The notes under the pieces were generated by a model that saw nothing but the letters and a program-made list of their open reading frames with translations, did not search any database and was not told the DNA's origin. Of a stretch of DNA of 30,934 bases, positions 12,957 through 13,921 are shown one piece after another (the stretch's first letter is position 1; each line of letters begins with the position of its first letter). A program made the translations under genes and the position numbers. The DNA comes from a virus (lineage: Duplodnaviria; Heunggongvirae; Uroviricota; Caudoviricetes), in IMG/VR virus record IMGVR_UViG_2526164634_000026; one strand, written 5' to 3'.

Positions 12957-13397
12957 ATGAAAAAACTAACCTTTGAAATTCGATCTCCAGCACATCAGCA
13001 AAACGCTATTCACGCAGTACAGCAAATCCTTCCAGACCCAACCAAACCAATCGTAGTAACCATTCAGGAACGCAACCGCAGCTTAGACCAAAACAGGAAG
13101 CTATGGGCCTGCTTAGGTGACGTCTCTCGTCAGGTTGAATGGCATGGTCGCTGGCTGGATGCAGAAAGCTGGAAGTGTGTGTTTACCGCAGCATTAAAGC
13201 AGCAGGATGTTGTTCCTAACCTTGCCGGGAATGGCTTTGTGGTAATAGGCCAGCCAACCAGCAGGATGCGTGTAAGCGAATTTGCGGAGCTATTAGAGCT
13301 TATACAGGCATTCGGTACAGAGCGTGGCGTTAAGTGGTCAGACGAAGCGCGACTGGCTCTCGAATGGAAAGCGCGATGGGGAGATCGGGCTGCATGA
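12957..13397 (+). CDS. ninB: NinB (Orf recombination mediator)
   Basis: 146 aa from ATG 12957, recognised as lambda NinB. Confidence 0.9.
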   Translation: MKKLTFEIRSPAHQQNAIHAVQQILPDPTKPIVVTIQERNRSLDQNRKLWACLGDVSRQVEWHGRWLDAESWKCVFTAALKQQDVVPNLAGNGFVVIGQPTSRMRVSEFAELLELIQAFGTERGVKWSDEARLALEWKARWGDRAA

Positions 13398-13921
13398 CTA
13401 TCAAATCAAATACGCCAGCACACGACAAGGACTGCTGGCAAACGCCGCTTTGGCTTTTTGATGCACTGGATATTGAGTTTGGATTCTGGCTGGATTCGGC
13501 AGCGAGCGACAAAAACGCTCTGTGCGCTCACTGGCTAACTGAGGCTGACGACGCGCTAAATTCTGAGTGGATAAGCCACGGTGCAATCTGGAATAACCCA
13601 CCGTACAGCAATATCAGGCCGTGGGTGGAAAAAGCCGCTGAGCAGTGCATACAACAGCGACAGACGGTAGTGATGCTTGTGCCAGAGGATATGTCTGTCG
13701 GATGGTTCAGCAAGGCTCTGGAGAGTGTTGACGAAGTTCGTATTATCACTGATGGACGGATTAATTTTATCGAACCATCGACAGGGCTGGAGAAGAAGGG
13801 AAACAGCAAAGGCTCCATGCTGCTGATTTGGCGACCGTTCATTAGTCCTCGACGGATGTTTACTATCGTATCCAAAGCGGCATTGATGGCGATCGGGCAG
13901 GGCGTCAGGAGGGCGACATGA
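13394..13921 (+). CDS. Phage DNA N6-adenine methyltransferase (Dam-like), in the place of ninC
   Basis: 175 aa from ATG 13394 (ATGA overlap with ninB stop); NPPY catalytic motif (AIWNNPPYS). Confidence 0.8.

Follow-up and report, generated by a model that had tools for sequence, protein, structure and literature searches.

The adenine methyltransferases Escherichia coli Dam and T4 Dam are orphan enzymes with the same chemistry and the same reported target, the adenine N6 of GATC. With DpnM they represent the classical Dam family (PF02086), in which a dedicated DNA-recognition domain is present. A different family, PF05869, contains the phage enzymes that are closest to the gene described here: orf32 of phage VT2-Sakai (NP_050531), coliphage T1 Dam and the Dam protein of staphylococcal phage 80. 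The gene studied lies in a stretch of 30,934 nucleotides (IMG/VR virus record IMGVR_UViG_2526164634_000026), referred to as the window, and encodes an N6-adenine methyltransferase in the nin region of a lambdoid prophage. It is very probably a GATC methylase of the PF05869/TIGR01712 type and a standard nin accessory gene with N-dependent lytic expression, whose likely role is the Dam-type methylation of replicating phage DNA. The gene is already known, as an ordinary named gene of lambdoid phages. The coordinates of the features discussed are collected in Table 1.

Among the closest known relatives is orf32 of VT2-Sakai. This protein and the studied one are identical at 172 of 174 positions, and the two substitutions, I60V and I158T, are conservative and have no apparent functional consequence. 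orf32 has the same length of 175 amino acid residues and occupies the same slot between ninB and ninE, with coordinates that overlap each neighbour by four nucleotides. The protein from phage 434 is 100% identical over residues 1-174 (174 aligned), and the DNA of the window at positions 12900-14300 is 99.9% identical to that of phage 434. Identical or near-identical genes are found in phages 434, Phi24B, HK97, HK140, SfI, Sf6 and CP-1639, and the position between ninB and ninE is also common to the annotated phage records listed among the matches to the region.

The distribution of the gene is wide. At a nucleotide identity of at least 95% it is present in 1566 of the 5426 complete E. coli genomes (about 29%), with up to five copies per genome; among the full-length matches listed, these copies lie between ninB and ninE and are labelled "phage N-6-adenine-methyltransferase". 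The same label is given by RefSeq to the coding sequence in the window (WP_000153263.1). A tblastn search of 50,697 phage records gave homologues in 1905, of which 244 have a protein identity of at least 95%, and clusters with thousands of entries, spread over the Enterobacterales, are found in the protein database. The gene is thus of little weight as a discovery, being named by NCBI, common in E. coli and 99% identical to orf32, which is taken to be the enzyme characterized in 2001.

The open reading frame (ORF) consists of 528 nucleotides, that is 175 codons and a stop, as read from the sequence and re-checked by a script. The ATG is found at 13394-13396 and the TGA at 13919-13921, and a Shine-Dalgarno-like GGAG (13380-13383) is located 10 nucleotides 5' of the ATG. 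A longer form of 195 residues, starting at the GTG at 13334, was ruled out because the Pfam profile starts at residue 4 of the ATG form, and because RefSeq and all full-length homologues have the 175-residue form instead. Judged by its matches to protein families, the ORF is a real gene and not a chance reading frame.

The protein matches PF05869 ("DNA N-6-adenine-methyltransferase (Dam)") with E=1.5e-64 and 217.2 bits against a cut-off of 28.1, covering positions 1-167 of the 169 in the profile. The NCBIfam equivalog TIGR01712 ("phage_N6A_met") is matched with 262.8 bits against a cut-off of 97.05. The sequence Asn68-Pro69-Pro70-Tyr71 (NPPY), which is the catalytic motif IV of N6-adenine methyltransferases, is invariant in an alignment of 45 homologues and also in comparison with T1 Dam and phage 80 Dam. 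The other residues that are invariant in the family are present as well, namely W15-x-T17-P18, L33-D34, W59 and G121-R122-x-x-F125, as seen either in the 45-sequence alignment or in a 4-sequence alignment with T1 and phage 80. These residues probably form the cofactor and base pocket, each with a putative role in it. Text matches to PF05869 in the literature include papers on fungal DIRS/Ngaro retrotransposons and on oomycete N6-methyladenine (6mA) methyltransferases.

The target of the enzyme, which the original prediction had left open, is already reported in the literature as GATC. A passage of PMC6602927, citing Radlinska & Bujnicki 2001, states that the enzyme M.EcoVT2Dam "is known to target 5'-GATC-3'". 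In the genome of VT2-Sakai (60.9 kb) orf32 is the sole annotated DNA methyltransferase, and for this reason it is taken to be the REBASE enzyme M.EcoVT2Dam. A second methyltransferase of VT2-Sakai was considered as an alternative; none is annotated, and the suspected orf4 is a DUF551 protein. The second report concerns PamA, whose expression in Staphylococcus aureus makes the genomic DNA sensitive to DpnI, as expected of methylated GATC, unless NPPY is mutated (bioRxiv 10.1101/2024.04.17.589803). The features described for PamA (141 residues, N64, P65 and C-terminal Q141) match phage 80 Dam, a member of PF05869 that is 34% identical to the studied protein. The third member, T1 Dam (PF05869, E=1.7e-70), is 33% identical in a local alignment (E=2e-26). 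It is said to have been found specific for GATC by Schneider-Scherzer and colleagues in 1990. Three far-apart members of PF05869, the VT2 enzyme, T1 Dam and PamA, are therefore reported as GATC methylators. Since this activity is kept at 33-34% identity, the studied protein, which is 99% identical to one of the three, can safely be called a GATC adenine-N6 methylase by homology.

The two more distant members differ from the studied protein in size and in context. T1 Dam (237 residues) shares the PF05869 match and the motifs W-x-TP, L-D, NPPY and G-R-x-x-F. However, it has an N-terminal extension of about 45 residues and two internal insertions, and it belongs to a virulent siphovirus and not to a nin operon. 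PamA/phage 80 Dam is, like the studied protein, a small orphan NPPY enzyme of a prophage, encoded just after the replication genes. It differs in the absence of the C-terminal strand and helix, and it is reported to be active in the lysogen, where it alters host virulence gene expression. Its host S. aureus has no Dam of its own, so that the effect of PamA is not redundant.

The genetic context is that of a lambda-type nin region. The neighbouring genes were identified by Pfam as NinB (a recombination mediator), NinE, NinF, NinG and a NinI-type phosphatase, and the order O-P-ren-[terminator]-ninB-X-ninE-ninF-ninG-ninI-Q is found on one strand, where X is the methyltransferase and both the N and Q antiterminators are present; the RefSeq annotation of a near-identical prophage agrees with this. 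The methyltransferase fills what we take to be the slot of lambda ninC/ninD. Overlaps of four nucleotides between stop and start codons are found at O/P, P/ren, ninB/dam, dam/ninE, ninE/ninF (GTGA) and ninG/ninI, and an overlap of eight nucleotides at ninF/ninG. The sole gap between O and ninI is one of 73 nucleotides, from ren to ninB. It contains a tR2-like intrinsic terminator, a strong stem-loop with a run of T after it, which by analogy with lambda probably acts as an N-sensitive one. Because this terminator is located 5' of ninB, expression of the methyltransferase should require both de-repression of pR and antitermination by N.

These observations bear out most of what had been proposed from the sequence of the window, that is, a 175-residue N6-adenine methyltransferase with an NPPY motif, located at the ninC position and joined to both neighbours by ATGA overlaps. 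It had also been proposed that the gene is co-translated with its neighbours in the delayed-early operon. The overlaps, the common strand and the upstream terminator are consistent with this. However, the overlaps run throughout the operon from O to ninI, and they are therefore a property of the operon and not peculiar to the methyltransferase gene. Several database entries fuse the methyltransferase to a neighbour: Dam and NinE in P0001 and P0022, Dam and NinB in P0013 and P0117, and PF05866 and Dam in P0011. The simplest explanation of these entries is that frameshifts or miscalls occurred at the 4-nucleotide ATGA overlaps, and not that true fusion proteins exist.

Data on the timing of expression exist for the orthologue in phage Phi24B. 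In PMC3342100 its dam gene (CM2, 528 nucleotides) is given as 100% identical to NP_050531. Antisera against lysogen cultures detected the gene product, and the quantitative PCR profile of the gene changed significantly on induction with norfloxacin, with a pattern tied to lytic growth. This pattern agrees with the anatomy of the operon in the window.

The methyltransferase is an orphan, as the original prediction had it. No restriction endonuclease was found among the flanking genes, each of which has a known phage function by Pfam, and the unassigned ORFs of the prophage gave no match to Pfam or to the PADLOC defence models. The top PADLOC matches of the methyltransferase itself are to "orphan methyltransferase" models. 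Four sizeable ORFs of the prophage are without a Pfam or PADLOC match, at 7648-8529 (-), 9201-9677 (-), 3135-3737 (+) and 18037-18795 (+), in addition to a few smaller ones. Among them are an ORF of 292 residues between N and a DUF2528 (ea10-like) gene, and another beside the repressor gene. In lambdoid phages such positions are often occupied by genes for exclusion or anti-defence.

A model of the protein was calculated with AlphaFold2 from the 45-sequence alignment (mean predicted local distance difference test, pLDDT, of 88; predicted template modelling score, pTM, of 0.86). The predicted structure is compact and consists of one domain in which helices and strands alternate, with the C-terminal helix last and no extra domain. 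This suggests a class I (Rossmann-like) methyltransferase fold without a separate target-recognition domain. The top matches of the model in the Protein Data Bank (PDB), as found with Foldseek, are structures of the eukaryotic mRNA-cap N6,2'-O-dimethyladenosine (m6Am) methyltransferase PCIF1/CAPAM, with template modelling (TM) scores of 0.55-0.61 and E of about 1e-4. All matches at E<=0.001 belong to the PCIF1/CAPAM type of adenine-N6 methyltransferase, and the nearest solved folds are all (N/D)PP(Y/F/W) adenine-N6 methyltransferases. Weaker matches were obtained with CamA, TrmM-type enzymes, E. coli Dam (TM 0.33-0.37, E>0.05), METTL4 and others; the structures of METTL3/METTL14 and METTL4 are marginal Foldseek matches only. 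Searches of the PDB by sequence and by the 45-member profile gave nothing significant for the methyltransferase.

The description of the enzyme as "Dam-like" can thus be retained for its reported function and target, but not for its family. PF02086 was not matched, and PF05869 was the only Pfam family found at E<=0.01. The similarity in fold to E. coli Dam is weak, and the classical Dam proteins are about 100 residues longer than the studied one.

Several other enzymes have to be distinguished from it. M.EcoGV, which is described as a Dam homolog (PMC6602927), and M.EcoPA8orf6770P are also prophage-borne, in lambdoid Stx phages. However, they have the motif DPPW and the MT-A70 fold, are encoded in the early-left region and have been shown to act on 16S rRNA together with a partner protein; they are kin to the studied protein only at the level of the Rossmann-fold superfamily. 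No Pfam match to MT-A70 was found in the studied protein, whose motif is NPPY and not DPPW. The prophage rRNA methyltransferase published in Nucleic Acids Research in 2023 (PMC10810198) is not the studied gene either, but the MT-A70/DPPW protein gp5 of the early-left region. Membership in the non-specific Hia5/Hin1523 family was rejected: PMC3299994 groups Hia5 with classical Dam, DpnM and T4 Dam, and HI1523 has 281 residues. Hia5 was set apart by family description and by length, that is, 175 residues and a match to PF05869 only for the studied protein against about 280 residues. M.EcoGIX was rejected as a relative; it is a plasmid-borne, single-strand-specific enzyme.

The reports of GATC specificity and lytic expression, taken from the literature, and the gene, motifs, family, near-identity to orf32, operon and orphan status, observed in the window, allow us to propose the following mechanism. 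In the repressed prophage the gene would be silent. After induction or infection, transcription from pR would pass through the tR2-like terminator under N antitermination, and translation would proceed in a chain of 4-nucleotide overlaps with ninB, ninE, ninF, ninG and ninI. The most likely job of the enzyme would be to provide extra Dam-type methylation of the fast-replicating phage DNA, beyond the limited capacity of host Dam or in hosts without Dam. The progeny DNA would then be methylated at all its GATC sites and would withstand restriction systems specific for the unmethylated sequence. This benefit to the phage is an inference of ours.

A number of points weigh against this proposal. 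E. coli carries its own dam gene, which makes the benefit to the phage conjectural, and the literature examined shows no fitness effect of deleting the gene in a lambdoid phage. The equation of orf32 with M.EcoVT2Dam follows only from orf32 being the sole annotated methyltransferase of VT2-Sakai, and the GATC specificity of M.EcoVT2Dam is known from a secondary citation, in the passage quoted above, and from the REBASE name. A predicted enzyme of 175 residues without a recognition domain would have to read GATC, and no structure of a family member is detectable by sequence. Overexpressed Dam-type enzymes may show off-target activity, a caution quoted in PMC10810198. The frequency of GATC was also considered. 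It is rarer than expected in the lambdoid prophage at 1285-24509, despite the GATC methylase encoded there: 58 sites were counted, where about 89 would be expected under a mononucleotide model and 101 under a Markov model, and the Mu-type segment of the window shows the same trend, with 15 observed against about 25-27 expected. This depletion neither supports nor contradicts a protective role.

An alternative is that the main role of the enzyme is epigenetic, that is, methylation of GATC at regulatory sites of host or prophage, with effects on the stability of lysogeny or on virulence genes, and not protection from restriction. PamA, apparently a member of PF05869, raises the virulence of S. 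aureus through its methylase activity (bioRxiv 10.1101/2024.04.17.589803). Host Dam is reported to be needed for 933W lysogeny to be stable (Murphy et al. 2008, as cited in PMC3342100), and the dam gene of Phi24B could supplement host Dam according to PMC3342100. However, GATC in E. coli is already methylated to about 99.9% by host Dam (PMC6602927, Table 4), so that little is left to change. In addition, the gene is located behind pR and a terminator and its Phi24B orthologue is lytic-linked, so that little or no enzyme would be expected in stable lysogens. A primarily epigenetic role is thus unlikely.

Two further possibilities concern target recognition and substrate. The first is that the PF05869 enzymes read GATC by means of a minimal Rossmann core of 175 residues, a mechanism that would be new to solved methyltransferases, and that they may have a second substrate (RNA or single-stranded replication intermediates) or a translationally coupled nin partner; we regard this as quite improbable. 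The second is that GATC in DNA is not the main target of the protein at all, and that it acts on RNA or single-stranded DNA or with relaxed specificity, perhaps together with the product of an overlapped neighbour. A precedent is M.EcoPA8orf6770P, an MT-A70 enzyme whose relatives are entered in REBASE as GATC enzymes and which methylates 16S rRNA with a partner protein (PMC10810198). The proximity of the model to PCIF1/CAPAM, its low similarity to E. coli Dam and its lack of a recognisable DNA-recognition domain could point in the same direction. However, the precedent comes from a different family with the DPPW motif (PMC10810198), and the three PF05869 members discussed above are reported to act on GATC in DNA. 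Another main substrate is therefore very improbable, and methylation of GATC in the replicating phage DNA is preferred.

Table 1. Positions of the methyltransferase gene, its signals and neighbours, and other features of the window
Feature	Position	Strand	Evidence or remark
Phage N-6-adenine-methyltransferase gene	13394..13921	+	PF05869/TIGR01712; orthologue of VT2-Sakai orf32 and phage 434 methyltransferase
N68-P69-P70-Y71 codons, catalytic motif IV	13595..13606	+	Read from sequence
ATGA overlap, ninB stop (TGA 13395-13397) / methyltransferase start	13394..13397	+	
ATGA overlap, methyltransferase stop / ninE start (ATG 13918-13920)	13918..13921	+	
ninB, upstream neighbour, same operon	12957..13397	+	PF05772 E=1.1e-53; RefSeq
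ninE, downstream neighbour	13918..14100	+	PF05322 E=1.3e-42
tR2-like intrinsic terminator in ren-ninB gap	12909..12941	+	Stem AGGCCTGC...GCAGGCCT, then TTTTTATTT
lpxR, lipid A deacylase LpxR, moron	15745-16704	-	Between Q remnant and complete Q, region 15530-17179
616-residue DUF1737 / SASA (NanS-type sialate esterase) / DUF6645 gene, downstream of Q	19338-21188		
Junction, truncated lambdoid nu1 / right end of Mu-family transposable prophage	24507..24510	.	Three-way alignment; not part of methyltransferase element
mom	24589-25326	-	PF25680 E=4e-75
com, overlapping mom	25247-25435	-	
Three GATC sites of Mu-type mom regulatory region, upstream of com-mom	25510..25544	-	Not part of methyltransferase element

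The window starts in the host gene ybhC, beside the lambda attachment site, and the lambdoid prophage follows. Its genes are int, xis, exo, bet, gam, kil, cIII, N, a LexA-family repressor, cro, cII, O, P, ren, ninB, the methyltransferase, ninE, ninF, ninG, the NinI-type phosphatase, a Q remnant, lpxR, Q, the SASA/NanS-type esterase, holin, lysozyme, spanin, rha and the start of nu1. The Q remnant is located at about 15530-15601, and the complete Q, which is of another type, at 17179-17868. In VT2-Sakai the corresponding SASA esterase gene is found just after stx2AB, and for this reason the prophage looks like a relative of the Stx phages without stx.

The lambdoid prophage ends abruptly within nu1. 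The top genome matches to window positions 1-25000 end at 24509, and in these genomes the lambdoid prophage runs on into an intact nu1 and head genes. From 24507 on, the window corresponds to the right end of a prophage of the Mu type with Mu-style tail and baseplate genes. A three-way alignment places a clean break between GACGACTA and AAGCGCGCAAAATC. This terminus also forms base 1 in the record of the Yersinia Mu-like phage vB_YpM_5, and its sequence TAAAGCGCGCAAAA resembles what we take to be the R-end of Mu, TGAAGCGGCGCACGAAAA. In the genome of FDAARGOS_1059 the lambdoid prophage and the same Mu-type end are about 720 kb apart, and the end there abuts a different host gene, a truncated SDR gene. 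The segment that spans the junction (22000-30934) has no place covered to at least 80% in any of the 5426 complete E. coli genomes, as random insertion of a Mu-type element predicts. The methyltransferase and mom are thus carried by different, neighbouring mobile elements, and a Mu-type prophage landed inside the lambdoid one, which is probably inactivated for packaging. The junction may instead be a rearrangement or an assembly artefact; the window ends at 30934.

This separation bears on the claim that the element with the methyltransferase also carries a mom regulatory region with three GATC sites. The sites and com-mom are real. The GATC sequences at 25510, 25523 and 25541 lie within 35 base pairs, and no other cluster in the window is as tight; the next independent group of three spans at least 152 base pairs. 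From the end of gin through com and mom, the identity to phage Mu is about 97% and all three sites are conserved. A single mismatch falls between the first and the second site, and two others about 10 nucleotides downstream of the third. However, they belong to the separate Mu-family prophage, and the proposed link through a common element fails in view of the junction and of the separate locations elsewhere.

In Mu, methylation of the mom GATC sites by host Dam prevents the binding of OxyR, and the C protein then activates mom. Since E. coli supplies Dam, the prophage enzyme is not required for mom. It is extremely improbable that the methyltransferase supplies Dam methylation for the neighbouring mom promoter, the two genes forming one functional unit: they lie within about 12 kb, the sites are identical to those of Mu and a GATC methylase could in principle block OxyR repression in trans, but the elements are distinct, none of the 5426 genomes covers at least 80% of the segment spanning the junction, the methyltransferase is present in 1566 of them, the gene is also found in phages 434, VT2-Sakai, HK140 and SfI (no mom is annotated in VT2-Sakai, the sole one checked), this lack of co-occurrence argues against a unit, and host Dam already serves Mu. 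The useful outcome is a correction, namely that a phage Dam and a Dam-dependent mom occur together here through the chance adjacency of two prophages and do not form a designed unit.

The Mu-type segment (24507-30934) contains mom, com, a gin-type invertase, an invertible tail-fibre segment and tail genes. Two inverted repeats of 160 nucleotides, 96% complementary, are found at 26047-26206 and 29241-29400. They flank about 3 kb with two ORFs for tail-fibre C-termini and two opposed tail-fibre assembly genes, an arrangement like that of the Mu G segment, and one of the arms covers part of the invertase gene at its 5' end. The arms are far longer than the inverted repeats of Mu, which are about 34 base pairs. 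Alignments with other genomes are interrupted within the two arms, at about 26163 and about 29281.

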